Source of the DNA: an uncultured Ignavibacteriaceae bacterium
GTDB taxonomy: Bacteria > Bacteroidota > Ignavibacteria > UBA10030 > BY39
DNA: 64,000 nt
Direction of reading: 5' to 3'
Assembly: GCA_964581995.1 (NCBI GenBank)
Contig: CAZOQB010000003.1
Coordinates: 41,989-105,988 of the forward strand
Below, piece after piece: positions 4,700-49,870 of this stretch. The notes beneath the pieces are model-generated. The model saw only the letters and a program-made list of their open reading frames with translations. It was not told the DNA's origin and made no database searches. How positions within the stretch are numbered: the first letter of the stretch is position 1; every line of letters begins with the position of its first letter. Both the position numbers and the translations under genes were made by a program.

Positions 4700-4717
4700 A
4701 AACTTGGCTTTAGCTCT

Positions 4718-4981: not shown

Positions 4982-5023
4982 TACACCATATTCGGAGTGC
5001 ATATGATTGATGGAGCCTAAACA

Positions 5024-33518: not shown

Positions 33519-33539
33519 TCTCCTTGTGTTTATGGAAAT

Positions 33540-34088
33540 TTAATCGGTTACTTCGACGGCGTCACGGACGATCATGTTAATTCCTTTCCATCCGGAATAT
33601 TCGGTCGAGCGAATTGAATAAACACCCGCACGGTCGAATTGCCAGAGGATATCGTTATTGTGTCCGGGAATTACCTGCATTTGGAAAACCATCGAATTAT
33701 CTTTTCGAAACAATCCGAAGCCGTATGTTAGATCATTTGAAGTTACATTGAATCTCACCTTTTCATTTGTTTTGATCATCAGTTTTTCCGAAGGAAGCGA
33801 GAACTGGTGATCTGCAACCGTGATGTTGAATTCCCGATCCGCTATAATCTCGGCGCGATTTAAATCCATCGGCTTCCATGGTATAGTTTCATGCGTAACG
33901 ATGTGTAACGAAACACCGATGACGACAAGTAATCCGACGAATGAATAAAAAAGAGCCGGTTTAATTTGATTGGTACCTCTGTCTCTTGTGACCTTATATG
34001 CAAACCAGCCCATCGTTGCCATAATCGCAAGGACATAGAACGTGTAGGCGATTGTTTGCCCGGTAAGCACTGTGTTTGAATCTATCAT
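33540..34088 (-). CDS. Heme-copper oxidase subunit II-like (cupredoxin-fold) protein lacking CuA cysteines
   Basis: Two N-terminal TM helices plus a beta-rich domain (SNDLTYGFGL..MQVIPGHNN) resembling the subunit II fold. No Cys residues in the CuA position. Start placed at MIDSN. Confidence 0.5.
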   Translation of the reverse strand: MIDSNTVLTGQTIAYTFYVLAIMATMGWFAYKVTRDRGTNQIKPALFYSFVGLLVVIGVSLHIVTHETIPWKPMDLNRAEIIADREFNITVADHQFSLPSEKLMIKTNEKVRFNVTSNDLTYGFGLFRKDNSMVFQMQVIPGHNNDILWQFDRAGVYSIRSTEYSGWKGINMIVRDAVEVTD

Positions 34089-34109
34089 AGTAGCGCCCTT
34101 TATATTGGT

Positions 34110-34119
34110 TATACGTATA
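34110..34119. promoter_or_regulatory. Perfect palindrome TATACGTATA in the promoter region of the oxidase genes (candidate Rrf2 operator)
   Basis: Seen directly between the Rrf2 stop and the subunit II start, followed by a ctacc-acaa-ggtag hairpin. Confidence 0.3.
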
Positions 34120-34159
34120 TATCCTACCACAAGGTAGCATTTAAAAATAAAAAAAACAA

Positions 34160-34564
34160 TTACTTCATTTTCTTTTTCAAGTCGGTTAATTTTGTTGATG
34201 AGAGAACATTTATCAGATTCATCTGCGAATCTGCCCAGACATCGTGCATAGCACAGGGATTTTCTAATACACATTCACCGAATCCGAAAAAACATGTGGG
34301 TGCGGTGGGGAATCCTTCCACAGCTTTAATAATATCGGAGAGATAAATTTTATCCGCTTTTTTTGCGAACTTATATCCGCCATATTTCCCGCGCTCACTT
34401 TTGATTAAGCCATTTTTCGATAGAACAGTTAATAACCATTGCAAATATTTTTTCGGAATTTTAAGCTGCTTATGGATATAGTCGGAAGAGTATTTTTCTT
34501 TTTCTTCCACAGCCATGAAAGTAAGTATCCGCAGAGCGTATTCCGTCGTTTTTGAGAATGTCAT
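34160..34564 (-). CDS. Rrf2-family transcriptional regulator with a three-Cys cluster-binding motif (IscR/NsrR-like)
   Basis: N-terminal wHTH (TEYALRIL..). Motif C-x6-C-x5-C (TCFFGFGECVLENPC). Confidence 0.8.
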   Translation of the reverse strand: MTFSKTTEYALRILTFMAVEEKEKYSSDYIHKQLKIPKKYLQWLLTVLSKNGLIKSERGKYGGYKFAKKADKIYLSDIIKAVEGFPTAPTCFFGFGECVLENPCAMHDVWADSQMNLINVLSSTKLTDLKKKMK

Positions 34565-34671
34565 CGGTTTATAATCATTGTTTTAAAAATATAACAAATA
34601 TTCTTATTCAACACCAAAAATAATCGTGTATTCAATTAACTATTTAAGACATTTGAAAAATTAGCAGTCAT

Positions 34672-34828
34672 ATTAATGTAAAGGTTTTTTCGCCATCCAC
34701 GCTAACCAAACGATGACCGACCAAATTATTGAGCGCAAACCCATAGCATGTACGCTGTGCAATGCAACAACGCCACCCAAAATATGCATTATGCTAACGA
34801 GAGCCAATACAATCAGGTGCATTGCCAA
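34672..34828 (-). pseudogene. Remnant (C-terminal ~50 codons plus 15 nt of 3' UTR) of a paralog of the 51279..51668 membrane-protein gene
   Basis: About 95% nucleotide identity to 51293..51450. No upstream portion of the gene is present. Confidence 0.7.
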
Positions 34829-35159
34829 TTATGTGAATCATTGAACTTTCTTTCCGTGATATGGCATGAAACTAACAATATCCCACAAATCAAGAGAGTT
34901 TAAAGGGCTTTCCATATCTGTGTTGCATACTAATAATTTAAGCTCGTTGTGTATTTGCTTTTATCCACATTCTTCTGTATTTTTCCCAATCCAAATTGTT
35001 ATCAAGTTAGGTTATTGAGTTTACTACTCCTATGGATGATCTTAAAGCTTAGCTACAAGAGCGATTTGTGGAAGAACTCTAACCATAGATGAGATATATG
35101 TTAAACCTAACGTCGGATTTCCACATCGCTATGATGAAAAGTTAAATTAACTTATTGTA

Positions 35160-36263
35160 ATGAGTCGTATAGAAGTAAATATTAACCCAAGCGTGTTACA
35201 ATGGGCAAGAGAAGAAGCCGGTTACGATCCTTCTGAAATTGCCGCAAAAGTAGAAGTCCCTACGGAAAAATACAATACGTGGGAGCAGAAGGGTGAAAAA
35301 GTGCCTCTTGGGAAATTAAAAAATATTGCCAATTATTATAAAAGGCAATTAGCTGTGTTTTTCCTCCCTGAAGTCCCAAAGAAAATCGTCAAGCCGAAAG
35401 ATTTTCGGAATGTCATAACTGCAAAGAGTAAACTCTCCAAAAAAGTTCTTTTAGTAATGCGCGATGTTACATATTTTCGTCAAACCGCACTTGAAATAAA
35501 AGGAGAAGGATACTGGAAAGATCGCTACAGTTGGATAGCTGAAGTTGACGCCAACAATAAAAAATCCGATGTGATTGCAGGATGGCTTCGTGAGAAATTA
35601 AATATCAGCGTTGAAGAGCAGCTCCGCTGGAAAACATCCAATGAGGCGTATCGTACGTGGAGAAGTGCGGTAGAAAACCAATTGGGAATTTTGATTTTCC
35701 AATTTCCGATGCCACTAAAAGAAGTGCAGGGTTTTTGTTTTACCGATGCGTATCCTTACTCAATCATTGTTAATTCCAATCATTCTTATACTGGTCGTAT
35801 CTTTACAATCTTTCACGAATTGGCTCATATCATAAACCATAATTCCGGCATTTGTTTGTGGGATGATGTTATGGAAAACCAAAATGAAGAATGGGAATGC
35901 AATTCGATTGCAGGAAATTTTCTTGTTCCAAAGAATATACTTCAATCCACAGACGATCTTAAAGAAATTCAGACATACGCCAACAAGTTTAAAATTAGTC
36001 CGGAAGCATATCTGCGTAGATTAAAAGAAGAAAAGGCAATCAGTTCCGTAAAATTCTTTACACTGCTGGATCAAATAAAAGCATCGTATCCCGCAATTCC
36101 ACCTAAGAAAATAATAATTAAGCCTGAAGTGAAAAGCAGGGCGAGCAGAGGAGAGACATTTTACACTCTTGTATTAGATGCTCTGAATCAAAATAGAATA
36201 TCTTATACACAAGCATCCGGAATGCTCGATCTGAATATCAGCCGGGTAATGCGTGAAGCATAG
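35160..36263 (+). CDS. HTH (XRE-like) + ImmA/IrrE-family zinc metallopeptidase
   Basis: N-terminal HTH-like region. HEXXH motif (FHELAHIINH). 367 aa. Confidence 0.75.
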   Translation: MSRIEVNINPSVLQWAREEAGYDPSEIAAKVEVPTEKYNTWEQKGEKVPLGKLKNIANYYKRQLAVFFLPEVPKKIVKPKDFRNVITAKSKLSKKVLLVMRDVTYFRQTALEIKGEGYWKDRYSWIAEVDANNKKSDVIAGWLREKLNISVEEQLRWKTSNEAYRTWRSAVENQLGILIFQFPMPLKEVQGFCFTDAYPYSIIVNSNHSYTGRIFTIFHELAHIINHNSGICLWDDVMENQNEEWECNSIAGNFLVPKNILQSTDDLKEIQTYANKFKISPEAYLRRLKEEKAISSVKFFTLLDQIKASYPAIPPKKIIIKPEVKSRASRGETFYTLVLDALNQNRISYTQASGMLDLNISRVMREA

Positions 36264-36777
36264 CTCGCAAAATATCTATTGCCTTGATACGAGCGCTTTA
36301 GTAACTATGCACCGATACTATCCTATACGAATCCTGCCTGATTTATGGAACAATCTTGAAGAATTATTTAAGAAACGCCGGGTACGTTCCCACGAATTTG
36401 TGTACGATGAAATAGTTCCGTCAACCGGAACAAAAGATGATTTAGCAAAACTTGTTTCGAAGCATAAAGTCTGTTTCCAAGCAATCACAAAAAAACAAGC
36501 GCAAGTTGTACCTGAAATTCTTTCTCTCTTTCCACATCTAATTGATCCGAGAAGCAAGAAAGATCAAGCTGATCCCTGGATTATTGCGATGGTTGTTGAA
36601 TTAATGGAAGAGACAAGTCTATTCGGGAAGGAATCTGAATTTGTTGTTGTCAGCACCGAGAGTGAATCGAGTCCAAATAAAATTCCCGCTGTTTGCAAGC
36701 ATTACAACGTAAGGCATATGAATCTTTTTGAATTTTATGAAGATAATGGATGGAGTTTTTCATTATCAATAAAATGA
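36253..36777 (+). CDS. DUF4411-family (PIN-like) protein, partner of the ImmA/IrrE gene
   Basis: 174 aa. N-terminal YCLDTSALV (PIN-like Asp). Overlaps the upstream gene by 11 nt. Confidence 0.6.
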   Translation: MKHSSQNIYCLDTSALVTMHRYYPIRILPDLWNNLEELFKKRRVRSHEFVYDEIVPSTGTKDDLAKLVSKHKVCFQAITKKQAQVVPEILSLFPHLIDPRSKKDQADPWIIAMVVELMEETSLFGKESEFVVVSTESESSPNKIPAVCKHYNVRHMNLFEFYEDNGWSFSLSIK

Positions 36778-36918
36778 GCTGCTATCTGCGGACTTGTTGG
36801 ATGTACGTTAAGTTGATTCTCTCAAAAGACTTTCGTAACTTTACCCACTATAAAAGCGGGTAAACAGAAATATTAGCTGAAATGGAAGAATACTATCGTT
36901 TACAATTGGGATTATAAC

Positions 36919-37641
36919 ATGGCAGTTAACTCATCCATAGAATGGACCGAATCTACGTGGAACCCGGTTACCGGTTGCAACAAGATAAGTCCGGGATGCA
37001 AGCATTGTTATGCAGAACGGATGGCGCATCGCTTGCAGCGAATGGGACAGGCGAACTATGCTAACGGGTTCAAGCTGACGATGCATGAACACGTTGTAGA
37101 ACTTCCGCTCCATTGGAAGAAGCCGCAAACGATCTTTGTGAATTCGATGAGCGATTTGTTCCACGAAAATGTTCCGCTTGAATTCATCCGGAAAGTTTTT
37201 GATGTGATGCGACGCGCTCACTGGCATCGTTTTCAAATCCTAACGAAACGCTCGGAGCGACTGCGAGAACTAAGTTCACTGCTTACGTGGACGCCAAATA
37301 TCTGGATGGGTGTCAGCGTAGAGAATCAAGAGTACACGCACCGCATAGACGATCTAAGAGCGACAGGTGCACAGGTGAAGTTTCTTTCGCTTGAGCCGCT
37401 GATGGGTCCTCTCCGCAAACTGAACCTTAAAAAGATCGATTGGGTGATTGTTGGCGGCGAATCGGGTCCGCACGCGCGACCGATGGATGAAACGTGGGTG
37501 CTCGATATACGTGACCAATGTGATAGTGCTAATGTCCCGTTCTTCTTTAAGCAATGGGGTGGTACGAACAAGAAGAAAGCCGGCAGATTGCTCGAAGGTA
37601 AGACGTGGGATGAGATGCCGAGATTGAGGAAGGCGGGATAA
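36919..37641 (+). CDS. Phage protein Gp37/Gp68 family (DUF5131)
   Basis: N-terminal [30 protein letters not shown] is highly characteristic of this family. It contains a Cx6Cx2C motif. Confidence 0.8.
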
Positions 37642-37691
37642 AGCAATGAGATTATTATCACTATTAAATAATTAGATAGAAAGGTATTCTT

Positions 37692-38816
37692 ATGCATATA
37701 CGAAATAATGTAATCACACTCCTCTTGGTTCTGTTTATCGCCGGATGCAGTAAGTATGACAAAGAAACTATTAAAGTTGGAAGAATACTTCCACTAACTG
37801 GTCCCGCAGCATCTTATGGACAAAGCGAACAGAAAGGTACGGCACTTGCCTTAGATGAAATAAACACCAAGGGTGGAATTGATAATAAAAAACTTGAAAT
37901 CATTTTTGAGGATGATAAGTGCGATGTTAAAGAAGGTGTGAATGCGATGAAGAAGCTTGTAGAGGTTGATAAGGTACCCGCAGTTCTTGGTGCGACTTGT
38001 AGTGGTGTAACTCTTGCTATATCACCGATTGCAAATGAAAAGCAAGTACTTTTACTTTCCCCTCTCTCTTCGCTTGCCGAAATAACCAACGCAGGTCCTT
38101 TTGTTTTCAGGGTGATGCCTTCCGATGCATTCCAAAGCAGAATATTAGCTGAGTGGGTTTATTCAGAGGGGTACACAAAAATTGCTATGCTTTCGATAAA
38201 CAATGCTTGGGGAAAGGGGGTCTCAGATGAATTTCAGAAATATTACAGTCAACTTGGAGGTGTTATTACAATAACTGAAATGTGCAAAGAGGGAGACAGA
38301 GATTTTCGTATCCAATTGGGCAAAATTAAAGAATCAAAACCGACTGCAATCTTTTGTCCGTCGATGCCCAAGGAGGGTGGGCTTATTTTAAAACAATTAA
38401 AAGAACTCGGAATAAAAGTGCCCATCTACGGTGCAGATGCATGGAGTGTAAAAGAACTACTAGATGAAGCAGGAAATGCAGCAGAAGGTGTGATGTACAC
38501 TTACCCAGCTCAGTTTACTGGTGCAGAGTATCAAGAATTCGCTACTTCATTCAAGAAAAAATACAGTCAAGATCCAGATGTCAATGCCGCAGGTGCATAT
38601 GACGCCCTTAAAATTTTATCCGTGTGTATTAAAAACGTTCTGGACCAAAAACTTCCTTTAACGGGCGGCAACCTAAAGATCGAAATGTCCAAGATAAAGG
38701 ATTTCAAGGGTGCAACAGGGACAACAACATTTGATGAGAATGGTGACTCAATCGCAAAGACTTTCGAAAAGATGATAATTCGAAATGGAAGTAGAGTTAA
38801 GTATGAAAAACAATAG
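37692..38816 (+). CDS. ABC transporter substrate-binding lipoprotein, LivK-like (Peripla_BP_6 family)
   Basis: Lipobox (LFIAGCS). Type-I periplasmic binding fold with branched-chain amino-acid binding-protein-like motifs. Confidence 0.8.
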   Translation: MHIRNNVITLLLVLFIAGCSKYDKETIKVGRILPLTGPAASYGQSEQKGTALALDEINTKGGIDNKKLEIIFEDDKCDVKEGVNAMKKLVEVDKVPAVLGATCSGVTLAISPIANEKQVLLLSPLSSLAEITNAGPFVFRVMPSDAFQSRILAEWVYSEGYTKIAMLSINNAWGKGVSDEFQKYYSQLGGVITITEMCKEGDRDFRIQLGKIKESKPTAIFCPSMPKEGGLILKQLKELGIKVPIYGADAWSVKELLDEAGNAAEGVMYTYPAQFTGAEYQEFATSFKKKYSQDPDVNAAGAYDALKILSVCIKNVLDQKLPLTGGNLKIEMSKIKDFKGATGTTTFDENGDSIAKTFEKMIIRNGSRVKYEKQ

Positions 38817-38819
38817 GAA

Positions 38820-39917
38820 TTGGGATTACCAAATAGAATGTTGACTCCGCCTCCCTTAATACGAGGCTCCTTTTTTCGGAGTGATGAGATTGAACGCGTA
38901 CGAGTAAACCATACATTACTTTCGGTTTCGCTTCTTCTTTCCAATGCATGCAATCTCCGCTGTATGTACTGCTATCGTGATGCGGGTGCACAAGACACAC
39001 AATTATTTATATTGAAAGAATGGAAGGAAGTATTAACTCAAGTTAAAGCATTAGGAGCAAGGAATGTTTGGATACCAGGATCGGGAGAACCAATGCTGGA
39101 TCCTGTTTTTTATTATGCTGGAAATTTCCCTTTGATTGAGCTTGCCAATTCTCTTGGATTATCGGTTACTTTCTTTACGAATGGAACCCTTCTTACGAAG
39201 CAACTCGTAAGGCTAATAAAGCAATATGATGTTTCCGTTATCACAAAGCTTAATAGTTTTAATCCTGCAGTGCAAGATTATCTCGCCGGGAAGTCGAACG
39301 TATTTGAGAAAGTGTGGCGTGGTCTAACTTTACTAATTGAGGCCGGGTTTGCGGACAACCATTCATCGAGACTTGGCATCGATACTGTAATTGTTGCTCA
39401 AAACTATGATGAAATCCCAGAGATGTTCAAATTTTGTCGAGATAGGAATATCATTCCTTATATTACTGCTAATCTCCATGGTGGTCGTGCTTGTATGAAT
39501 AACCAGTTGGATGTTTCAAAGAATAAGCTGAGCGTACTATTCGAACAACTATTACGTATTGACCAAGAAGAATATGGTTTTACTTGGTTCCCTTCTCCTC
39601 CAATTGTAGCCTCACAGTGTAAAAAGCTTTTCTACGATATCGTGGTAGATTCCACAGGCGAGGTCTCTCTGTGCCCAGGGATTCAACTACCGATTGGTAA
39701 TATCCGTGATAATAAATTAAAGGACTTGATGCAGGCATCGGATTTATTCCAAAAGATTCGTAATCTGCCAAATAAACTCGAAGGCAAATGCCGATCCTGT
39801 CTTTCAACGGAATGTGGATATGGATGTCGGCTGGAAGCTTGGGCGCATGGTAATCTCTTTGGAGATGATCCGATGTGCTGGCATGAAATTAATACCACAA
39901 CAGTTGCCGTACAATAG
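38820..39917 (+). CDS. Radical SAM enzyme with a C-terminal SPASM domain
   Basis: CNLRCMYC (CX3CX2C). C-terminal CX2CX5CX3C (CRSCLSTECGYGC) preceded by CPG. Confidence 0.8.
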   Translation: MGLPNRMLTPPPLIRGSFFRSDEIERVRVNHTLLSVSLLLSNACNLRCMYCYRDAGAQDTQLFILKEWKEVLTQVKALGARNVWIPGSGEPMLDPVFYYAGNFPLIELANSLGLSVTFFTNGTLLTKQLVRLIKQYDVSVITKLNSFNPAVQDYLAGKSNVFEKVWRGLTLLIEAGFADNHSSRLGIDTVIVAQNYDEIPEMFKFCRDRNIIPYITANLHGGRACMNNQLDVSKNKLSVLFEQLLRIDQEEYGFTWFPSPPIVASQCKKLFYDIVVDSTGEVSLCPGIQLPIGNIRDNKLKDLMQASDLFQKIRNLPNKLEGKCRSCLSTECGYGCRLEAWAHGNLFGDDPMCWHEINTTTVAVQ

Positions 39918-39925
39918 TAGAAACC

Positions 39926-41296
39926 ATGAAAATTCAACTTGTAAAAGCACCTACTCAAAATACAGGCATGCCTGAGCATGACTGGTATACACCTTTAAAT
40001 CTAATTTGGCTTGCGAATTATCTCTGCCAATATGATTATGAAGTTGAAATACTCGATGGTCAGATTCTTACGATTGAAGAAATCCTAAGTAGAATTTCCG
40101 CTGATCTTGTAGGCGTAAGTTTTGATATTTTATCGATTGACAAATTTGATCAAATAGTTTATCAAGCAAAGAGCAGGGGATGCTTTACTTTGGCTGGTGG
40201 TCATCTTGCAACCGCACTCGGAGAACGACTCTTAATTGACAACCCAAATCTTGATGCTGTGGCTTGCTACGATGGAGAAGAAGCACTTCTTGGAGTTGTT
40301 CGTACAGTCGAGAAAAAGAAAAAACTATCAAAAGAGATCCCAAACCTTATTTTTCGGCAAAATGGGACTATTGTTAAAACTATCGTCCGAGATGTGAACT
40401 TATCAGATATACCATTACCGAAGAGGGATGTGGGAGGTATTCAACTTGATGATTATATAAAAAATTTTCAAGAGACAAAAAAAAGATTAGGTTTCGATTT
40501 CAATTATAATAGACCAACAAACACATACTCACACAAAGGTTGCCTGTTCCGCACGAATGGTAACGGTTGTAGTTTCTGTTCCAGAGTAGATCAGAAATTT
40601 AGATTAAAACCTGCTAAAAGGGTATACGAAGAGTACAAATATTTAGAGAGGACATTTGACATAGACTACATATCCGACTTTAGCGATAGCTGGATTTATA
40701 CTCCTTTCGTGAGGGATTTGGTAGAACAATATGAACGGAAAGGGAAGCTGAGTGCATCGATTCGCGTATACGGTGACGTAAGAATGGTGACCGCAGACAA
40801 TGCGAGAATGATGCGACAAATCGGGGTTAATACAGTTCTCCTAGGCATTGAGTCCGGGAATGAAGATGTTCTCAAGAAGAATGGAAAACCAACAACAAGA
40901 AAACAAATTCTCGCAGCGGTTGACATCTTAGCTGCTAACGATATGAAGATTGCAGATGCTTATGTCCTGGGTTTAATCGGTGAGACACGTGAAAGTGTCA
41001 ATGATACAATTTCATTAGCAAAAGAAATTAGAGAGCGATGTAAAACAGAAATTTCGTATTGGAATCTAATGACGCCTCTTCCCGGGAGCAGGATTTGGAA
41101 CATTTTAGTACACGAAAAATATGATCTGTATCCAGATGGAGTATTTCATATTGATACTGAATACCTAGAACGTGTAAGCATTAAAAAATTCACACAACTT
41201 GGTATCCATGGATATGAATATTTAGTAGACAGACGAGAAGAGATGCTGTCTTTATCAAGAATTGCGAGCTCTGAGTTTGTTACAGCCAATAGATAG
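39926..41296 (+). CDS. B12-binding-domain radical SAM protein (class B-like) with a non-canonical Cys motif
   Basis: N-terminal Rossmann-like B12-binding region. Cys motif CLFRTNGNGCSFC (CX8CX2C) in place of CX3CX2C. 456 aa. Confidence 0.65.
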   Translation: MKIQLVKAPTQNTGMPEHDWYTPLNLIWLANYLCQYDYEVEILDGQILTIEEILSRISADLVGVSFDILSIDKFDQIVYQAKSRGCFTLAGGHLATALGERLLIDNPNLDAVACYDGEEALLGVVRTVEKKKKLSKEIPNLIFRQNGTIVKTIVRDVNLSDIPLPKRDVGGIQLDDYIKNFQETKKRLGFDFNYNRPTNTYSHKGCLFRTNGNGCSFCSRVDQKFRLKPAKRVYEEYKYLERTFDIDYISDFSDSWIYTPFVRDLVEQYERKGKLSASIRVYGDVRMVTADNARMMRQIGVNTVLLGIESGNEDVLKKNGKPTTRKQILAAVDILAANDMKIADAYVLGLIGETRESVNDTISLAKEIRERCKTEISYWNLMTPLPGSRIWNILVHEKYDLYPDGVFHIDTEYLERVSIKKFTQLGIHGYEYLVDRREEMLSLSRIASSEFVTANR

Positions 41297-41318
41297 TCAA
41301 TCATAAGGAATATTTAAT

Positions 41319-42464
41319 ATGGGCCTACTTAAATTTATAGTTTCTATAATTGTTCTTGCTGTTATTGCATACTATACTTATCAAAGCACTTTTAATAGGA
41401 TAGATATCGAGACACTTATCATCGCGGAGAAAAGTGGGGGTATAGCTGCGGTCATTCCAGATGGGAAGATAATAAAAGAGGAATCGGCGGATTCACTTTT
41501 CGCAATGTTGGGATATGTCAAGTCAGACAGCTTTGTTGTTCAAGCCGGAAAAGGTACTGGCGATTCGATTGTTGGTACTATAGTTATACTCTTTGGGAGT
41601 ATTGTCGTTTCCTGGAGTATTTTTTCGATAATAGATTACTTGTTCAGTATAGCTCCTTTGCGTCTTCAATGGAGGAGCAAGTTTTTTCGATGGACACATC
41701 GATGGCTGGGAAAATATGGATTAAGTCGTACAGACAGCACAGACAGTGAGTTACGAGAAAACTATTATGAACTTCTTCGGCTACTTTCATCTGGGTTCGC
41801 TAGTGAATATGAAAATGTCAATATCCGCTTAAGCTATAATGGGACAGTATCAGATCTTCAAGAGAGATGCGAAGCAAGTTTAAACGTTGATAAGTTAACA
41901 CTACCCGTAGGTAAAGGGAAATTGGTTGAATTATTGGAATATTGGGAGAAACTTGTTGTCGCAAATAAGGCAATCGTATCCCGTGTTTTTGTTTCGCCAC
42001 CGTGGATTTACTTGTATAACTCAGTAAAGGATAAGAATTCACTCTCTTGGTACTCTTCTGTAAATAAAAACATAAAAACCTGTTGGACGCACACAGGGAA
42101 AGAAAATGTGGAGAGGGAAATAAAGAATCTCAAACCAGATCTAGATTTTGCACTTTTTGAAGGAGATCGCAATGTAGGAGGCATGAAAGAACGGGGTAGG
42201 ATTTGTGTGGGGTATATTAAGGGAAGTCTTGTTTATACCTTCCAGACCAATGATGAATGTTTACTAGACAAAAGGCCTACTTATCTCAACACTTTGTGGG
42301 CTACTGGACAAGACCACAACGCGACGATTGCGGAAATTAATAGTCATTCAAAGCTCTCATGGCGGATTCGTTCTAAAATCATGAGTTACTGTTCAAATTT
42401 TAGTAAAAATATTTTTTCCTTCAAGAAACAATTTCCAATTTCATCAACTACAGTTCCCAAATAA
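41319..42464 (+). CDS. Membrane-anchored hypothetical protein (two N-terminal TM helices plus a ~250-aa soluble domain)
   Basis: Hydrophobic segments at residues ~5-22 and ~85-112. No recognisable family. Confidence 0.5.
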   Translation: MGLLKFIVSIIVLAVIAYYTYQSTFNRIDIETLIIAEKSGGIAAVIPDGKIIKEESADSLFAMLGYVKSDSFVVQAGKGTGDSIVGTIVILFGSIVVSWSIFSIIDYLFSIAPLRLQWRSKFFRWTHRWLGKYGLSRTDSTDSELRENYYELLRLLSSGFASEYENVNIRLSYNGTVSDLQERCEASLNVDKLTLPVGKGKLVELLEYWEKLVVANKAIVSRVFVSPPWIYLYNSVKDKNSLSWYSSVNKNIKTCWTHTGKENVEREIKNLKPDLDFALFEGDRNVGGMKERGRICVGYIKGSLVYTFQTNDECLLDKRPTYLNTLWATGQDHNATIAEINSHSKLSWRIRSKIMSYCSNFSKNIFSFKKQFPISSTTVPK

Positions 42465-42499
42465 TGCATAGGAAAGAATTGTGAATAGTTGTTTTTCAA

Positions 42500-43963
42500 T
42501 TGATATTACAGTATATGAAACCTAAAAAATACTCCATTCTCTCAACAATCAGCGATCCGCAGCGATACGATTTGATGTTAGAATCATGTTATGTCTTATT
42601 ACGATGTGATGAATGGGATTTTATTGAAACTGATGAAAATGGTATACCTTCATCTTCAACTTCATGGATCCATAGTATACAATCTGCATTGATGATGTTC
42701 GGACTTGATGTTACATCGTATCCACAAGGAAGTGTTTCTGCTAATAGAAATTACTATGAAGCATTACGAAATTATTTTGACGGCAAATTCCCTGATAACG
42801 GCGATACAAACCTATTAAGAGAGAGATTAAGAAATTTTCTTCGTCTCAGACGAGATGATTCAGGTACAAGTAATACTGATCTTTATGGGTCATATTTCAG
42901 CACTGATAAAACACACAGTTCACGGGATGTAACTAATTTTAGAAAAATCGAAACAAGCTTGAGACATAGTGCAGCTGCATTATGGATTTTAGTCGAAGAA
43001 TCTCTTGGTAACTTCCGAAAGGATATCTCAGATTCTCTTGATTCTTTTTTTCTACATATCAAGGAGTATTTATCAGCTTCAGATATTTGGAAAAGAGACA
43101 AATTCAAACAACTGACGATCTCCAACACATATAATTTGTGCAAATCTATCTTAAAATATTCAGAAGATAATAAATTTAGAAAAAATGCCTCTTCTGTAAT
43201 TCTAAAATGTAAAAAAGCTATTTGGTCTGAGGACTGTTTAAGACAAGGAGATGATGGTGAATATAGTTGGATATATCCCCAAATTAGTAAGAGTAAATTA
43301 GCAATTTATGAATACTACCTCAATTCTTATTGTCTTGCGCAGATGCCTGAATTGTTAAATGATAAAAGAGCACAGTCTATTGTACGTGGTATGCTAAAAA
43401 ATAGAATTAATTCACTTGTAGGTTTTGGCATTCCTCTCCATCCGTTGATAATATACAATTCTCAGGATAATATTAAACCTGATTTCGGTGCTACTGCCTC
43501 AGTACTTTATTTTCTGTGGTACTCAATTGAGAATGAAGTTGGTGGCCGTAAATGGATTGAATATTGTAAAACAAATTTTGATTGGGTCTTACAGTTTTGT
43601 TTAAAAGCATATGAAAAAAAAGAATATTACATTCTTCCAATATTAGAAAACAGTTCAAAAATATTACTTATGCCAAGGATGAAATTTGATCCTATACGTG
43701 AAGAAGAAATCAATAAGTATATCGAAGAACTAAAAAAGAATGCAATATATCCTGAGATGAAAACACATGAAGGAAAACTTCATAAATCAATGAAAAACAT
43801 ACAATCACCAACTGGTTTAGAATGTGTTAAGGAAATAATCGGAACATGGAATCTCACTGAACATTGGGGTTCACAAAAACGCTGGAAATTTAATTTTAAA
43901 ATTAATTCTGGGAAACTAGGTGAATTTGTTGGTGGTATTTTAAAAGCATATAGTACACCATGA
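42500..43963 (+). CDS. Large hypothetical protein (487 aa), helical, Cys/Trp-rich
   Basis: No recognisable motifs. Shares AT-rich composition with the radical SAM genes. Confidence 0.5.
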   Translation: MILQYMKPKKYSILSTISDPQRYDLMLESCYVLLRCDEWDFIETDENGIPSSSTSWIHSIQSALMMFGLDVTSYPQGSVSANRNYYEALRNYFDGKFPDNGDTNLLRERLRNFLRLRRDDSGTSNTDLYGSYFSTDKTHSSRDVTNFRKIETSLRHSAAALWILVEESLGNFRKDISDSLDSFFLHIKEYLSASDIWKRDKFKQLTISNTYNLCKSILKYSEDNKFRKNASSVILKCKKAIWSEDCLRQGDDGEYSWIYPQISKSKLAIYEYYLNSYCLAQMPELLNDKRAQSIVRGMLKNRINSLVGFGIPLHPLIIYNSQDNIKPDFGATASVLYFLWYSIENEVGGRKWIEYCKTNFDWVLQFCLKAYEKKEYYILPILENSSKILLMPRMKFDPIREEEINKYIEELKKNAIYPEMKTHEGKLHKSMKNIQSPTGLECVKEIIGTWNLTEHWGSQKRWKFNFKINSGKLGEFVGGILKAYSTP

Positions 43964-43964
43964 T

Positions 43965-44240
43965 ATGATTAATCAGTTGCTGATAAATGGTTTAATTTCT
44001 GGAGCGATTTATTCTCTCGTGGCTCTTGGCTTTGCCCTCATTTACCAAACAACCCGTGGCGAAGCCACTCCTTTGGAGCTTCTTCTCCCGCTTTACAGCG
44101 GGACAGGCACTTCCCAAAGGGACAAGTCGCTCACGGGGCTGTTTATACATTTGGCGCTTACACTTCGACGGATTTTACCCCGACGAAAGTAGGGGCTCAG
44201 CGCATGATTTGCTTATCTGTTTTACACACAACTAGAATCT
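43965..44240 (+). pseudogene. Degraded duplicate of the 5' end of livH
   Basis: MINQLLINGLISGAIYSLVALGFALIYQTTRG.. versus LivH MIEQLILNGIIAGSIYSLVAIGFALIYQTTRFF... The nucleotide match resumes at gctcacggggctgtttatacatttggcgcttac and cttatctgttttacacaca. Two GC-rich insertions break the frame. Confidence 0.7.
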
Positions 44241-44284
44241 CCTTTTTTATAGTATGATTATCATGGATAAGTTGTTTGCATTTC

Positions 44285-44322
44285 ATATACAAAAGTATAT
44301 ATTTGTATACAAAAGTATATAA
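44285..44322. promoter_or_regulatory. Tandem direct repeat (tatacaaaagtatata x2), candidate operator upstream of the wHTH-MNT gene
   Basis: Two 15-16-nt units separated by ~4 nt, about 40 nt upstream of the ATG at 44363. Each unit is internally palindromic (TATAC..GTATA). Confidence 0.35.
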
Positions 44323-44362
44323 ACAAGTCAAAAGTCAAAATTAAAAATTAAAAAAATATGAA

Positions 44363-44974
44363 ATGATAATTCACAGGGTATTTGATGAGGTGTTTCGGTC
44401 GTGGTCGCATGTAGCGGTATTGCGGGCTTTACTCGATACGTCGACCGGCTCTACCGGTAATGAAGTGGCGCGTGTATCGGGGATGCAACCGCGATCAGCA
44501 TTGAAGGCGCTGACTTCATTGGAAGCGCTGGGGATTGTTCGCCGCCAGCGGGGTGGAAGAGACCACATTTTTACTTTAAATCGAGAGCACTTCATTGTTC
44601 GTGATGCGATCTTATCACTATACAACTCGGAACGACAATTCCCTGAGGTTCTTGTCAATGAGCTTAAAGCAATTTTGAAAAGCCCTGTTGTAAGTGCAGT
44701 AATGTTTGGAAGCGCCGCTAGAAGAGAAGAGACTCCCCAATCCGATCTCGATATTTGCTGCGTTGTTAAGAGTGAAAAACAAAAGGATGTCGTGCGAGAC
44801 ATATTGAACGATCAAGCCGGGATATTATTTCGGAAATATGGTGTTAAAATTTCTCCTTTACTTTTTACGGTTGATGAACTGCGGAAGAAATCAAAAAATC
44901 AAATCATCAAAAGTATTATAGAAGACGGCAGAGTGATCACCGGGAAAAATCCGAAGGTACTATTAAATGGCTAA
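44363..44974 (+). CDS. Winged-helix + minimal nucleotidyltransferase (MNT) domain protein
   Basis: N-terminal MarR-like wHTH. FGSAARREETPQSDLDICCV nucleotidyltransferase motif. Local GC is markedly higher than the neighbouring radical SAM genes. Confidence 0.75.
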   Translation: MIIHRVFDEVFRSWSHVAVLRALLDTSTGSTGNEVARVSGMQPRSALKALTSLEALGIVRRQRGGRDHIFTLNREHFIVRDAILSLYNSERQFPEVLVNELKAILKSPVVSAVMFGSAARREETPQSDLDICCVVKSEKQKDVVRDILNDQAGILFRKYGVKISPLLFTVDELRKKSKNQIIKSIIEDGRVITGKNPKVLLNG

Positions 44975-45377
44975 ACGACGGGGAAGGAAATCGGTTGATA
45001 GATCACGATACCGGGAGTATTTAAATGTTGCGGAACATTTTTATCAAGCCGGAAAGGATTCTTTTGAATTAGAATACCATACCGCTGCAGGCGTTTTGGT
45101 TGTACACTCGGCAATTGCTTATGCAGACGCACTCTGTATAAAACTATCAGGACAAAGGAGTGCAGGTGAAAATCATGAAGATGTTATCGCCATATTAGAA
45201 AACGTTGTAGCGGATAGTGATGATAAAAAGAAAGCAATACAGCAGCTAAGGCGAATCATAGAAGAAAAAACGCTGATTTCGTATTCGGGAGAATTGTATA
45301 CTGCAAGCGGTGTTGGTGAGTTAATGAAAAGGTTAGAGAGGTTTCGTGAATGGGCAGTGGGAATCTTAAACCGGTGA
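44967..45377 (+). CDS. HEPN-domain protein, partner of the MNT gene
   Basis: 136 aa, helical. Overlaps the MNT gene by 8 nt. Classic MNT-HEPN arrangement. Confidence 0.6.
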   Translation: MAKRRGRKSVDRSRYREYLNVAEHFYQAGKDSFELEYHTAAGVLVVHSAIAYADALCIKLSGQRSAGENHEDVIAILENVVADSDDKKKAIQQLRRIIEEKTLISYSGELYTASGVGELMKRLERFREWAVGILNR

Positions 45378-45381
45378 AGCC

Positions 45382-46260
45382 ATGATCGAACAACTTATTC
45401 TCAATGGAATAATTGCTGGCAGTATTTACTCACTCGTTGCCATCGGCTTCGCTCTCATCTACCAAACCACCCGCTTCTTTCACTTCGCTCACGGCGCTGT
45501 TTATACATTCGGCGCTTACTTCGCTTATCTGTTTTACACACAGCTTGGGTTAGATAGATTTGTAGCGTTTCCTCTCGCTTGCATCTGCGCAGCACTTATC
45601 GGCGTAATCTGCGAAATCATTATTTATAAACCGATGCGAGCGAGGAAAGCAACCGACCTTACATTACTCATAGCATCGCTTGGTCTCTACATCGTTTTAC
45701 AAAATATCATCTCCATGCTCTGGGGAGACGATACTAAAACAATGCGAACAGGTGAAGTGGTTGAGGGACATGAATTTCTTGGCGCACGAATTACAGATAT
45801 CCAAATCGCAATCATCGTAACGTCTATCGTTTTGATTGCGCTGATTTCGCTGATGTTATCGAGGATGAAGTTTGGTAAGGCACTGCGTGCGCTGGCGAAT
45901 GATCCTGAGCTTGCACGGCTGAGCGGTATCAACTCTGATCGGTATATCATGTATGCGTTTGCTATCGGCTCGTTCTTAGCTGCCGTTGCTGCAATTATGA
46001 TCTCGTTTGATACAGACATGACTCCGACTATGGGCTTCAATGCGTTGGTTATGGGAGTGATTGCTGTGATTGTCGGCGGAATTAACAGTTTGCCGGGTGC
46101 GGCGCTTGGTGGTTTGTTTATCGGTCTTGCACAGAATTTAGGTGTGTGGCAGTTGCCCTCAAAGTGGCAGGATACGATAGCGTTTGTGATACTGATTTTG
46201 TTTTTACTTTTTAGACCGTATGGAATACTCGGGAAGAAACCGACGAAGGAACATGTATGA
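45382..46260 (+). CDS. livH: Branched-chain amino-acid ABC transporter permease (LivH-like)
   Basis: 292 aa, eight or more TM helices, typical LivH N-terminus. Confidence 0.8.
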   Translation: MIEQLILNGIIAGSIYSLVAIGFALIYQTTRFFHFAHGAVYTFGAYFAYLFYTQLGLDRFVAFPLACICAALIGVICEIIIYKPMRARKATDLTLLIASLGLYIVLQNIISMLWGDDTKTMRTGEVVEGHEFLGARITDIQIAIIVTSIVLIALISLMLSRMKFGKALRALANDPELARLSGINSDRYIMYAFAIGSFLAAVAAIMISFDTDMTPTMGFNALVMGVIAVIVGGINSLPGAALGGLFIGLAQNLGVWQLPSKWQDTIAFVILILFLLFRPYGILGKKPTKEHV

Positions 46261-46323
46261 TTTCACAGATTGCACAGATTGGACGCAGATGGTGATTATG
46301 CAGATTGCACAGATGATACACAG

Positions 46324-46746
46324 ATGAGCGAGCGAGAAAAATATCCGTTGAAGGAGTTGACTGAGAAGATTATCGGCGCAGCATATGAAGTGCATAACAC
46401 ACTCGGCGGCGGGTTTGTAGAGAAGGTGTATGAGAATGCGTTAATAGAAGAGTTGCGTGAACATGGTTTTATTATTGAACAGCAGAAACCGGTGAGCGTT
46501 TTATACAAAGGGAAATCCGCAGGTGAGTTCATTGCAGATATGATTGTGGAAAAGAAGGTGCTTGTTGAAGTGAAGTCAGTAAAAATGTTAACAAAAGATT
46601 TCGACTCAAAGTTGATTCATTACCTCAAAGCTACAGGCATTGAAGTTGGCTTATTAATCAATTTCGGTGAGAGTGTACAAGTTCATCGTAAAATCTATAC
46701 TCCAAAACAAAAACAATCTGTGAATAAATCTGCGCAATCTGAGTAA
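46324..46746 (+). CDS. GxxExxY family protein (PD-(D/E)xK-like)
   Basis: GGGFVEKVYENAL motif. About 140 aa from the MSEREK start. Inserted between livH and livM. Confidence 0.75.
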   Translation: MSEREKYPLKELTEKIIGAAYEVHNTLGGGFVEKVYENALIEELREHGFIIEQQKPVSVLYKGKSAGEFIADMIVEKKVLVEVKSVKMLTKDFDSKLIHYLKATGIEVGLLINFGESVQVHRKIYTPKQKQSVNKSAQSE

Positions 46747-46749
46747 TCA

Positions 46750-49683: not shown

Positions 49684-49744
49684 ATTCGATTTCCTCGCAT
49701 ATAATAATTTATATTTTACTTGAATTGAATCTATTAGTTTTATC

Positions 49745-49870
49745 TGTTTTCCATACAACCCAAACAATAGCCAGCCAAACTACTGAGCGGATGCTCATCG
49801 CTTCTACACTATGCAAAGCAACTGCTCCATTCGAAAAATAAATTACTCCAACAAGTCCCATATTGTTATT
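49745..49870 (-). pseudogene. Diverged remnant of a paralog of the 51279..51668 gene
   Basis: About 70% identity to 51300..51420, with an internal deletion. Confidence 0.45.

Follow-up and report, generated by a model that had tools for sequence, protein, structure and literature searches.

Radical SAM genes, toxin–antitoxin pairs and displaced gene ends around a livHMGF operon of an uncultured Ignavibacteriaceae bacterium

The T6SS effector–immunity arrays of V. cholerae undergo sequential displacement in which remnants are kept, and this has been attributed to homology-facilitated illegitimate recombination (PMC5361080). These arrays are a precedent for the displacement scars described here, which are likewise kept, in a stretch of 64,000 nucleotides (the window) from an uncultured Ignavibacteriaceae bacterium. 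Chromosomal integron arrays are a second likeness: the toxin–antitoxin (TA) slot of the window and its relatives resembles them in its co-oriented, packed small TA genes. Within HTH/DUF955/PIN three-component systems, DUF4411.1 has been assigned the role of toxin (PMC5499597). The interval from 34.6 to 45.4 kb of the window is probably a mosaic of independent modules flanking the 5′ end of livHMGF, a conserved ABC-transporter operon. The radical SAM gene set within it is likely to be the operon's own, with small selfish modules, mostly TA pairs, added around it.

A radical SAM cassette, probably native to the liv operon

The cassette (37692–43963, + strand) starts with the gene for a LivK-like substrate-binding lipoprotein (SBP; 37692–38816; Peripla_BP_6, E 6e-56) with the lipobox LFIAGC. 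It is followed by a radical SAM/SPASM enzyme (38820–39917; Pfam Radical_SAM and SPASM) with a CNLRCMYC motif, whose NCBIfam matches all lie far under the family cut-offs (best NirJ2, 101 versus 500 bits), and by a class B, methyltransferase-like B12-binding radical SAM enzyme (39926–41296; Pfam B12-binding and Radical_SAM), for which the NCBIfam search gave no equivalog. A 381-residue membrane-anchored protein with two hydrophobic segments (41319–42464) comes next; it has no match in Pfam, NCBIfam or PADLOC, and its AF2 single-sequence model, with a pLDDT of 36.5, is not usable. The last cassette gene encodes a 487-residue orphan protein with an (alpha/alpha)6-toroid fold (42500–43963). The intercistronic gaps from the SBP gene to livH′, a displaced 5′ end of livH described below, are 1–35 nt, leaving no room for extra genes.

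The metagenome contig L104 carries the order SBP, SPASM radical SAM enzyme, B12 radical SAM enzyme, 355-residue protein, 474-residue protein and livHMGF, with neither a TA pair nor livH′. Eight of its genes are detectably homologous to those of the window at 48–58% identity (SBP 58%, SPASM enzyme 56%, B12 enzyme 57%, homologue of the 487-residue protein 48%, LivH 51%, LivM 58%, LivG 48% and LivF 52%), and its 355-residue protein is weakly similar to the 381-residue protein at the same position (22% over 187 residues, E 1e-4). Partial versions of the cassette occur in L042, where the SBP is 60% and the SPASM enzyme 55% identical, and in L064, L102 and L103. Since L104 shares the gene order with uniform divergence, there is a good probability that the cassette and livHMGF form one nine-gene operon, presumably co-transcribed, in which the cassette is native and not cargo.

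The SBP is only 23–39% identical in relatives in which LivH is 78–97% identical, and so the SBP gene is a member of a variable cassette, not a displaced conserved livK. In 11 loci with an upstream SBP and a LivH at least 77% identical, the SBPs show this same 23–39% identity to that of the window, and hardly any of the genes that lie between SBP and livH are homologous to one another. Over all loci, 106 ORFs of this interval fall into 72 clusters. The B12 radical SAM enzyme is the commonest family by BLAST clustering (12 of 41 loci), Pfam B12-binding is found in 11 of 93 scanned interval proteins, and the leading domains are Radical_SAM (19), B12-binding (11) and polyprenyl_synt (6). The window cassette is probably one of many alleles at an "SBP + enzymes" slot that varies strongly and is characteristic of this transporter clade. 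Because the SBP and the enzymes co-vary, each cassette probably sets the small molecule imported by the shared LivHMGF translocator, and also how the imported molecule is modified inside the cell; alternatively, the enzymes might have no tie to the transporter and simply ride along at a permissive site. Upstream of the SBP gene each locus has a different sequence, and so the comparison shows no left anchor for cassette exchange.

The first-pass annotation had read this interval as one AT-rich accessory/defence island of about 11 kb, inserted in at least two steps and by an unspecified mechanism into a once-contiguous livK–livH junction. Every gene that it listed is present in a Pfam search of the window ORFs, the SBP gene is indeed separated from livH by 6,566 nt (6.6 kb), and Pfam, Rfam and tRNA searches of the interval gave no integrase, transposase, tRNA or Rfam match. 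A single island would also agree with the defence-type matches of the ImmA, DUF5131 and MNT proteins described below, with the existence of the livH′ duplicate and with the SBP gene lying less than 200 nt from livH in four related loci. However, among 41 distinct related loci in which an SBP gene lies upstream, the comparison sequences all being metagenome assemblies, the spacing is at least 1 kb in 36, with genes in between, and less than 200 nt in only those four, so that the general adjacency of livK and livH assumed earlier does not hold for this clade. Moreover, the SBP co-varies with the enzymes and not with livH, the ImmA/DUF4411 and DUF5131 genes lie upstream of the SBP gene and not between it and livH, and L104 keeps the position and order of the radical SAM cluster, earlier taken for cargo, directly before livHMGF with a uniform divergence of about 50–58% across the operon. 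The composition is that of the background as well: the interval has 38.6% GC versus 40.1% in the rest of the window, not 30–35%, and its genes differ from those outside 30.1–51.3 kb little in GC (0.401 versus 0.403, p=0.66) and somewhat in GC3 (0.353 versus 0.388, p=0.04). The only low-GC gene is that of the 487-residue protein (32%), and the MNT and HEPN genes, thought to reach about 50% or more, measure 44% and 41%. Build-up in layers has stood, whereas the single island is largely refuted and must be regarded as very improbable.

Toxin–antitoxin modules and displaced livH ends

Two accessory, defence-type modules lie on the + strand upstream of the SBP gene. The first pairs an HTH + ImmA/IrrE (Peptidase_M78) protein (35160–36263; Pfam PF06114, E 1.4e-17) having a HELAH motif at residue 219 with a DUF4411 PIN-like putative toxin (36253–36777; Pfam PF14367, E 2.3e-23), the two genes overlapping by 11 nt. 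PADLOC matches of the former to RmrA (E 2.3e-17) and PDC-M69B point to a putative RmrA-like, protease-type antitoxin or regulator. The module is 78% identical to L028 over 35135–36761 at the nucleotide level, and its two proteins are 80% and 83–84% identical to those of L028, respectively. The second is a solitary DUF5131 (phage Gp37/Gp68 family) gene (36919–37641; Pfam E 1.9e-106; PADLOC candidates PDC-M41B, E 1.6e-127, and PDC-M30B), which is lacking between the DUF4411 and SBP genes of L028. With a GC of 0.499 and a GC3 of 0.556 among neighbours of 0.31–0.35, this gene stands out in composition from the rest of the interval.

The livH 5′ duplicate noticed earlier is real. This scar, livH′, runs from 43965 to about 44235 on the + strand (tblastn E 6e-12), corresponds to about nt 1–162 of livH and has its ATG 1 nt past the stop of the 487-residue ORF. 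It is 76% identical to the window's own livH, with one 35-nt block of 94% identity, and is broken by two GC-rich inserts at about 44057–44126 and at 44162–44207, the second of which has a 41-nt pattern unique within the window. Next to livH′ is the other defence-type module, a wHTH-MNT nucleotidyltransferase (44363–44974, + strand; Pfam wHTH, NTP_transf_2 with E 2.9e-9 and Polbeta; PADLOC PDC-M05A, E 3.7e-17) with a GSx10DLD motif, resembling a type VII TA antitoxin, and a HEPN toxin-like protein (44967–45377, + strand; Pfam HEPN, E 8.6e-5, 23.1 bits against a cut-off of 22 bits) in which RSAGENH is the Rx4-6H motif. The HEPN gene overlaps the MNT gene by 8 nt and stops 4 nt ahead of the livH ATG. 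Two exact copies of the 14-bp palindrome TATACAAAAGTATA (0.01 expected by chance) lie at 44286–44319 (+ strand) in the spacer upstream of MNT, which has a GC of 0.189, and may be an operator for the wHTH-MNT protein.

The slot directly upstream of livH holds at least seven other TA types in relatives, with the families DUF433–DUF5615, HicAB in two arrangements, PIN_3, DUF5678 with an aspartyl protease, DUF4258 with a zinc-finger protein, AbiEi, BrnTA and PIN. A 148-nt MNT 5′ remnant, 92.6% identical, survives in L007/L008 and is cut off by HicAB genes in L007. Fragments of livH′ are found in the window, L011, L019, L022, L023, L027, L028 and L103, with endpoints at about residue 34, 42, 42, 61, 67, 68, 122 and at least 212 in the eight loci. 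Among the fetched loci, the 12-nt core of the second livH′ insert recurs only in livH′ of L001 and L011/L012. Both inserts occupy the same positions in the window and L011, yet different cassettes and TA pairs adjoin them, which needs either extra rounds of exchange anchored on livH′ or a site-specific small element.

Chimeric joins between strains could in principle produce such duplicated fragments and mosaics, since metagenomes are the source of the window and of almost every comparison locus, and strain mixtures can give chimeras at conserved genes such as livH. An origin as an assembly artefact is nevertheless extremely improbable: an independent Logan assembly (L001, SRR8863431) matches 11.5 kb essentially exactly, including livH′, MNT–HEPN and the PDDEXK_3 gene described below; the same 487-residue protein is present on a 219-kb NCBI/ENA contig; livH′, with its inserts and its divergence from livH, is not a collapsed repeat; and at least seven further assemblies contain similar scars.

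Intact livH (45382–46260, + strand; 78–97% amino acid identity in 27 distinct relatives) is conserved, and sequence similarity between loci begins at its ATG, with no conserved motif upstream of it among the compared loci. A PDDEXK_3 (GxxExxY-type) mini-element (46264–46746, + strand; gene 46270–46746, Pfam E 9.7e-38) with inverted CACAGAT-type repeats at 46264–46279 and 46728–46743 separates livH from livM; it lies outside the coordinates of the first-pass annotation. Homologues (61–76% amino acid identity) follow livH in L011, L017, L018, L021 (two copies), L024/25, L033 and L039, between livH and livM wherever the contig includes livM, and in 42 of 51 distant relatives livH and livM lie no more than 31 nt apart. 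The translocator genes livM, livG and livF (46750–49075, + strand) are conserved and carry recombination breakpoints: identity to L007 is 0.85–0.95 until about 48,100 and then falls sharply inside livG to 0.59–0.72, and identity to L018 falls at about 47,650, the livM/livG border.

The TA pairs and other small genes might be thought of as cassettes belonging to a site-specific system, integron-like or not, whose recombinase is encoded elsewhere in the genome, given their co-oriented, tight packing in a single slot and the inverted repeats flanking the PDDEXK_3 gene. However, the livH′ breakpoints vary by locus from residue about 34 to at least 212, an attC site cannot fit into the 4 nt between the HEPN stop and the livH ATG, the loci share no motif upstream of livH and no integrase is found among the examined window ORFs, so this explanation is most unlikely. 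The preferred reading is one of recombination in conserved genes. DNA of related genomes would enter by one crossover in a conserved gene, the opposite side being joined either illegitimately or by a second homologous exchange, with neither an integrase nor an att site involved. The MNT–HEPN pair would thus have entered livH about 160 nt from its start and brought a new livH 5′ end with it, the old one being left as livH′ directly after the last cassette gene. With repeated rounds, the gene ends and TA genes already present would be displaced, and TA pairs may act as addictive hitchhikers that stabilise whatever adjoins them. The true insertions would then be small, namely MNT–HEPN, the solitary DUF5131 gene, HTH-ImmA/DUF4411 upstream of the SBP gene and PDDEXK_3 between livH and livM. 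Since the comparison found no relative at strain level in which the TA slot beside the same cassette is empty, we infer the order and direction of these events.

Gene X and the 21-kb variable region

Gene X (51279–51668, − strand), encoding a 129-residue membrane protein that is 93% (L097) and 81% (L100) identical, is the conserved right flank, and from 51.3 to 63.7 kb the window is fully syntenic with both loci. The conserved left flank is an NAD-dependent epimerase gene (Pfam; 29129–30058, + strand; 95–96% amino acid identity in L097 and L100). The "remnant paralog fragment" reported earlier is confirmed as X′ (34680–34824, − strand), a displaced copy of the last 48 or so codons of gene X that is 94.5% identical over 145 nt to 51295–51439 and 92.9% and 86.6% identical to the X orthologues of L097 and L100, respectively. 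X′ and X form a direct repeat, and X′ marks the left edge of the block from ImmA to liv. The X 3′ end is present a third time, with weaker similarity, as X″, a 50-residue ORF (49709–49861, − strand; tblastx 40–46% amino acid identity, E 7e-11). In the recombination reading, gene X would be the anchor at the far end and livH/livM those at the right.

It is also possible, though unlikely, that the X′–X block (34.7–51.3 kb) or all of 30.1–51.3 kb entered as one integrative element or a few, with the 3′ end of gene X as target; the whole liv operon would have been brought in as part of it and the integrase since lost, X′, X″ and X being att-type direct repeats. The direct repeats themselves, the variable epimerase–X spacing and the position of a liv operon elsewhere in GCA_964520905.1, adjoining rplM–rpsI, agree with such an element. 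However, integrase, excisionase and tRNA are all absent, and recombination through a homologous gene fragment explains a 145-nt repeat with 8 mismatches no less well than an att site does. Both the window and L097 have a metallophosphoesterase gene beside X, although the two proteins share only 35% identity, and the internal livH′ scar and TA turnover are left unexplained. This model is compatible with the recombination reading and does not exclude it. Between the epimerase and X genes lie about 12 nt in L100, 2.9 kb in L097 and about 21 kb in the window, so the entire liv locus falls in DNA absent between the same two genes in both relatives, and the variable region (30.1–51.3 kb) is larger than the first-pass annotation had supposed.

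Gene content and base composition of the liv locus

The interval 34570-45380 had been described in the first-pass annotation as an AT-rich accessory or defence-type island of about 11 kb at the livK-livH junction. ORF listing and Pfam searches confirmed the gene list given for 34.6-45.4 kb. The left part carries a gene for an HTH and ImmA/IrrE (M78) peptidase with an HELAH motif (35160-36263; PF06114), a DUF4411 gene overlapping it by 11 nt (36253-36777) and a DUF5131 gene (36919-37641). These are followed by the gene for a LivK-like Peripla_BP_6 substrate-binding lipoprotein (SBP; 37692-38816), the genes for a radical SAM (rSAM)/SPASM enzyme (38820-39917) and a B12-binding rSAM enzyme (39926-41296), and two ORFs without a family match that encode 381 aa (41319-42464) and 487 aa (42500-43963; the called gene starts five codons later than the ORF). 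The wHTH-MNT (44363-44974) and HEPN (44967-45377) genes, both with Pfam matches, lie directly upstream of livH, livM, livG and livF (45382-49075), which are all co-oriented with the SBP gene. A PDDEXK_3 gene between livH and livM (46270-46746) had gone unmentioned. As reported before, there is no integrase, transposase or tRNA gene, judged by domain scanning of the ORFs of 29-51 kb and a tRNA/tmRNA scan over the 64 kb; Rfam at the gathering threshold and the tRNA scan gave zero matches in the whole 64-kb window. No island protein reached an NCBIfam equivalog cut-off, and a promoter/terminator scan gave counts equal to the shuffled expectation. PADLOC produced candidate or partial matches, namely RmrA-like for the ImmA gene, PDC-M41B/M30B for DUF5131 and PDC-M05A for MNT, with nothing specific for the rSAM genes, and a complete known defence system was not detected in the window.

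The base composition differs from the earlier description. The GC content of the interval is 38.6%, compared with 40.1% in the rest of the window, and the standard deviation among 1-kb windows is 4.4 points. Gene-wise GC is 0.401 inside and 0.403 outside (p=0.66), and gene-wise GC3 is 0.353 inside and 0.388 outside, a marginal difference (p=0.04). The supposed 30-35% GC fits only the 487-aa gene (32%), and the MNT and HEPN genes, said to reach 50% or more, measure 44% and 41%, respectively. The sole strong compositional outlier of the interval is the DUF5131 gene (50% GC, GC3 0.56). Elsewhere, two neighbouring genes at 27595-28949 (GC 0.28-0.29, GC3 0.19-0.20) deviate far beyond anything in the interval, and the region 4241-7738 (GC 0.51-0.54), which holds the gene for a 904-aa P-type cation ATPase, is a further outlier and a possible acquisition.

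The SBP-enzyme cassette as part of the liv operon

The block from the SBP gene to the 487-aa gene (37692-43963; hereafter the cassette) is present in relatives in front of the permease genes. Among the comparison loci L001-L104, which are metagenome-derived contigs of relatives collected for the liv locus and its flanks, L104 has the order SBP, SPASM rSAM, B12 rSAM, 355 aa, 474 aa and livH-M-G-F. Eight of the nine genes in L104, liv genes among them, encode proteins 48-58% identical to those of the window, and the 355-aa protein of L104 is only weakly similar to the 381-aa protein (22% over 187 aa). This uniform divergence points to a single co-inherited operon that includes the rSAM cluster, and the shared gene order tells against the proposed insertion between livK and livH. 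L102 has SBP, 494 aa, B12 rSAM, 480 aa and livHMGF, and L103 has SBP, 349 aa, B12 rSAM, 478 aa, a displaced 5' copy of livH (livH'), the toxin-antitoxin (TA) pair BrnT/BrnA and livH; L064 and L042 carry related cassette versions. The cassette genes in the window are separated by gaps of 1-35 nt. The family of the 487-aa protein is very small, with 17 clusters found in a set of 5.8 billion sequences and 35 representatives in one of 1.84 billion, and all homologues with readable context are encoded at the end of a cassette, directly before livH or before livH' plus a TA pair.

Since the SBP gene follows the cassette type and not livH, it belongs to the variable unit, and livK-livH adjacency is not the ground state. 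The loci were gathered by LivH similarity; 27 distinct loci have LivH identities of 77-97%, and an upstream SBP gene is visible in 11 of them. The SBPs of these 11 loci are 23-39% identical to that of the window, and hardly any of the genes that separate SBP from livH are related to one another; phmmer and BLAST comparisons of large unknown proteins from one cassette to another found no hidden common family. Where the rSAM cassette is shared, the SBP identity is 58-60%. A distance of at least 1 kb separates the SBP gene from livH in 36 of the 41 distinct loci with an SBP gene (median ~3.3 kb), and the distance is below 200 nt in only 4 of the 41, so that the expectation that livK usually adjoins livH does not apply to this transporter clade. 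The 106 interval ORFs fall into 72 clusters, and the commonest domains, counted in 93 interval ORFs, are Radical_SAM (19), B12-binding (11) and polyprenyl synthetase (6), together with methyltransferases. The cassettes of close relatives encode rSAMs, SAM methyltransferases, an EgtD-like methyltransferase, a P5C-reductase-like protein, GTP cyclohydrolase II, a KamA-like rSAM, an AlaRS-like domain, a thioesterase and many proteins without a match. The clade, present in Ignavibacteriota-like genomes as well as in other uncultured lineages, extends over LivH identities of 48% to 100% to the window. A scan of a genome collection with the SBP protein returned distant matches only (25-39% identity; Saccharibacteria/Paceibacterota, Bdellovibrionota and Deltaproteobacteria MAGs).

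The transporter resembles LivJ/K-LivHMGF, the branched-chain amino-acid ABC importers of the HAAT family, in its pair of BPD_transp_2 permeases, its pair of ABC ATPases and its Peripla_BP_6 lipoprotein. It differs in that enzyme genes fill 1-6 kb between the SBP gene and the permease genes of most clade members, and in that the SBP scores 157 bits with NCBIfam PRK15404 against a cut-off of 477 bits, making it a member of the superfamily and not a LivK equivalog.

The 487-aa protein has the (alpha/alpha)6 barrel fold of class II terpene cyclases and (alpha/alpha)6 toroid enzymes, a fold that by itself assigns no activity. It has no Pfam or NCBIfam match, no PDB sequence match at E<0.3 and no recognisable family motif, and its conserved region reads LRRDDS, not DxDD. 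Its residues D119, E43, E46, H156 and D328 are invariant. Both rSAM enzymes score below all curated family cut-offs, with only remote solved relatives in PDB sequence searches. A single-sequence AF2 model of the 381-aa protein was unusable (pLDDT 36.5). The cassette was also considered as a known defence system and rejected, PADLOC yielding just generic viperin-like similarity for the rSAM genes. In contrast to RiPP clusters of the rSAM/SPASM type, no precursor-peptide gene lies in the gaps between the cassette genes, which leave no room for one, and no SPASM equivalog family scores at cut-off. Since the SBP and the enzymes co-vary and many cassettes encode small-molecule-modifying enzymes, we tentatively favour import-coupled modification of a small molecule as the cassette function. 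Six cassettes encode polyprenyl synthases, which, combined with the cyclase-like fold of the 487-aa protein, hint at terpenoid chemistry in some cassettes. The polyprenyl synthetase genes lie in the SBP-livH intervals of L043, L056, L070, L075, L078 and L083, mostly beside genes for proteins without a family match.

These observations lead to a tentative joint reading, which we hold as a possible rather than a probable one. The locus may represent a clade of Liv-type importer operons with an interchangeable specificity cassette, consisting of a fast-diverging SBP gene and one to five enzyme genes before the permease/ATPase genes. The enzymes would most often be B12-dependent or SPASM rSAMs; polyprenyl synthases, methyltransferases and, as an orphan, a terpene-cyclase-like toroid protein would also occur. 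Through the cassette, uptake of a particular small molecule would be linked to its modification inside the cell, or natural products of a new class would be made. Cassettes would be swapped by livH-anchored recombination with TA pairs riding along, and the nine-gene operon of the window would be a rare allele. The single modules are of known kinds, and their combination is a new form of otherwise known recombination-hot-spot behaviour, in which a clade-wide SBP-enzyme-LivHMGF design is joined by one TA slot with regenerated gene ends and by integrase-free turnover. Literature searches on livH with rSAM and on DUF5131 yielded nothing concerning this operon design. An uncharacterised and apparently widespread operon design is recognised, in which variable rSAM, B12 and terpenoid-type enzymes stand between an SBP and LivHMGF, and an orphan (alpha/alpha)6 protein family is brought to light.

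Upstream of the SBP gene, L103 (3657-5450) and L104 (2507-4291), the loci sharing the cassette type of the window, carry an OLD-family ATPase-TOPRIM nuclease gene directly adjacent to it, with an overlap in L103. In other relatives, HerA-like, DUF499, R-M and SNF2/PLD genes take this place, and the position 5' of the SBP gene has the character of a slot for defence genes.

Small insertions, displaced gene ends and proposed exchange at livH

The mobile pieces are small. Directly upstream of livH, a slot has been occupied by at least eight TA-type families: DUF433-DUF5615 (L011, L009), HicA/HicB (L007/8/37), HicB/HicA (L013/14/32), PIN_3 (L028), DUF5678 with an aspartyl protease (L018/20/21), DUF4258 with a zinc-finger protein (L007, L027), AbiEi (L022), BrnTA (L103) and PIN (L056). 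It is empty in L015, L024, L029, L030, L034, L102 and L104. L007/L008 keep the first 148 nt of the MNT gene of the window (92.6% identical), truncated by incoming HicAB genes. Similarity between loci starts at the livH ATG, and no shared motif was found upstream of this ATG across loci. The TA pairs were also considered as integron cassettes, and this was set aside as improbable on the basis of the missing motif and of the 4 nt between the HEPN stop and livH, which leave no room for an attC site there.

In the window the slot holds the MNT and HEPN genes, which overlap by 8 nt and carry the motifs GSAARREETPQSDLD (GSx9-13DxD type) and RSAGENH (Rx4-6H). With MNT upstream of and overlapping HEPN, GSx10DxD and Rx4-6H motifs, and Pfam and NCBIfam domains, the pair has the arrangement of a putative type VII HEPN-MNT system; unlike that system, its MNT has an N-terminal winged HTH and scores 28.9 with NCBIfam MntA against a cut-off of 60 bits. 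The spacer upstream of MNT has 19% GC and contains two exact TATACAAAAGTATA palindromes, compared with 0.01 expected by chance, which we read as a putative operator/promoter of the MNT-HEPN module itself.

The ImmA-DUF4411 genes form a discrete two-gene unit, and in L028 the same module (78% nucleotide identity) directly precedes a different SBP gene, with DUF5131 absent. A DUF4411.1 PIN-like gene after an HTH-M78 peptidase has been described as a three-component TA arrangement (PMC5499597). The pair in the window, an HTH and an M78 zinc peptidase (HExxH) next to a putative toxin gene, probably belongs to this HTH-ImmA-PIN type. It also resembles RosmerTA, with a fused HTH-M78 (DUF955) gene, an overlapping DUF4411 gene and a PADLOC RmrA match at E 2e-17, but its DUF4411 is unmatched by any PADLOC RmrT model at E<=0.01 and has weak PDC-M69C similarity (E 0.0017). 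DUF5131 is a lone high-GC gene with flanking gaps of 141 and 50 nt; the B component of PDC-M41/M30 matches it at E 1e-127, and an A-type partner was not found among the ten ORFs scanned.

The PDDEXK_3 element (46264-46746) consists of a GxxExxY-type gene with inverted CACAGAT-type terminal repeats. Homologues are found 3' of livH in eight other contig groups, L011, L017, L018, L021, L024/25, L033 and L039 among them, and lie between livH and livM wherever livM is present; in L021 a further copy separates livM from livG. The livH-livM gap is 31 nt or less in 42 of 51 distant-clade loci and at least 86 nt in 13 of 18 close-clade loci. The PDDEXK_3 unit looks like a small mobile element colonising intercistronic gaps. 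Similar CACAGAT-type sequences are also seen where livH' ends in L023 and L027 and, in L007, upstream of the MNT remnant. The livH-livM gap contains a 23S_rRNA_IVP (four-helix-bundle) gene and a Phd/ParE-type TA pair in L103 (12660-13664), and a gene for a ~590-aa DUF6880 protein in L011 and L013, suggesting that it accepts several kinds of selfish gene.

The livH 5' duplicate is real. It extends from 43965 to ~44235, copies the first ~160 nt of livH (tblastn E 6e-12; one 35-nt block is 94% identical), and its ATG lies 1 nt past the stop of the 487-aa ORF. A livH' is found 5' of a TA pair in the window, L011, L028 and L103, alone in L019, L023 and L027, and also in L022, ending in eight loci at about residue 34, 42, 42, 61, 67, 68, 122 and at least 212. 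The best matches are 71-87% identical to any livH, and the fragments are too short and decayed to point to a donor copy. Two GC-rich inserts split livH' in the window, at about 44057-44126 and 44162-44207. GC-rich, hairpin-prone inserts occupy corresponding positions in L011 (8037-8080, 8138-8203) although the neighbours of the two loci differ, and the L019 junction at ~1645-1700 contains sequence resembling them. A MITE burst as the origin of the second insert is unsupported, with one copy only in the window.

The supposed remnant paralog fragment also proved genuine: 34680-34824 is a 94.5% copy (X') of the 3' end of gene X, a 129-aa membrane protein gene (51279-51668, minus strand) 16.5 kb away in the same orientation. 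A weaker third copy (X'') lies at 49709-49861. The X'/X pair forms a 145-nt direct repeat (94.5%) that brackets 34.8-51.3 kb and not the interval first proposed, and no direct repeat flanking 34570-45380 was found. Assembly artefacts were considered as a source of these scars and set aside.

The conserved transporter genes are, judging from sequence comparison, themselves a recombinant mosaic. The identity between the window and L007 is 0.85-0.95 from within livH to ~48,100, inside livG, and then 0.59-0.72; because of this sharp break, the LivH/M/G/F identities to L007 fall from 96 and 96 to 87 and 63%. The identity to L018 drops at ~47,650, and from the two comparisons the tracts begin at the 5' end of the operon and end variably downstream. 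The identity breaks, the variable scar breakpoints, the lack of recombinase genes and the tight junctions together lead us to infer livH-anchored exchange. Homologous recombination would be anchored in livH, and the other join may be homologous or illegitimate. An illegitimate join inside the recipient livH would leave the old 5' end with the old cassette, which would explain why livH' begins 1 nt after the last cassette gene, and the incoming TA and livH DNA would restore livH. The X'/X''/X repeats may be the mirror image of this process at the 3' end of gene X. Illegitimate recombination facilitated by homology was proposed for displaced effector/immunity remnants at V. cholerae T6SS loci and in Rhs/CDI arrays (PMC5361080). 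As in those systems, new modules lie beside a conserved anchor gene, older genes or gene ends are kept as remnants, and there is no dedicated recombinase. Here, in contrast, the 5' end of livH, a housekeeping-type permease gene, and the 3' end of gene X are the anchors. What moves are TA pairs and SBP-enzyme cassettes instead of toxin-immunity pairs, and it is the 5' end of the anchor gene itself that is left behind as a displaced remnant. The minimal mobile elements of Neisseria are cassettes with conserved genes on either side, and they are swapped through transformation and homologous recombination. The liv locus shares with them unrelated alternative gene sets in one slot, the lack of mobility genes, and exchange deduced from conserved flanks and mosaic identity, but only the right flank (livH) is conserved, a common left flank was not found, and for some events the scars rule out a clean double crossover. 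The locus is a clear natural example of gene gain without mobility genes, in which conserved genes would serve as anchors and livH' and X' record the events.

In the first-pass annotation, most of the observations were right apart from composition, and the view of layered accessory and defence modules holds, whereas the single AT-rich island at the livK-livH junction does not. The locus resembles a defence island in that candidate defence genes cluster here, but the rSAM cassette, which is its largest block, lacks a defence signature. A plausible call of an island splitting an operon can be mistaken in its very nature: the big block is part of the operon, and the mobile pieces are small and partly outside the interval.

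The larger variable block from 30.1 to 51.3 kb

On the right, the flank from 51.3 to 63.7 kb has the same gene order as L097, and the encoded proteins are 90-99% identical. The distance from gene X to an epimerase gene (29129-30058 in the window) is 2.9 kb in L097, ~12 nt in L100 and ~21 kb in the window, and so the whole liv locus lies in strain-variable DNA. Orthologous sites without the insert were found for the 30.1-51.3 kb block and not for an arrangement with livK immediately in front of livH. L100 and L007 come from one assembly (GCA_964520905.1), in which the liv operon adjoins rplM-rpsI. The ~21-kb block contains a 298-aa gene, a COX1-like, cupredoxin-like and Rrf2 set, X', the genes from ImmA through livF, a small LTXXQ-like gene, X'' and two further genes. 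The accessory module at 31890-34564 on the minus strand consists of genes for an Rrf2-family regulator and a COX1-family haem-copper oxidase subunit and of a 244-aa ORF without a Pfam match, whose position and sequence suggest a cupredoxin/CoxII-like protein. This module may encode an oxidase or NO-reductase-like unit whose control is of the Rrf2/NsrR type.
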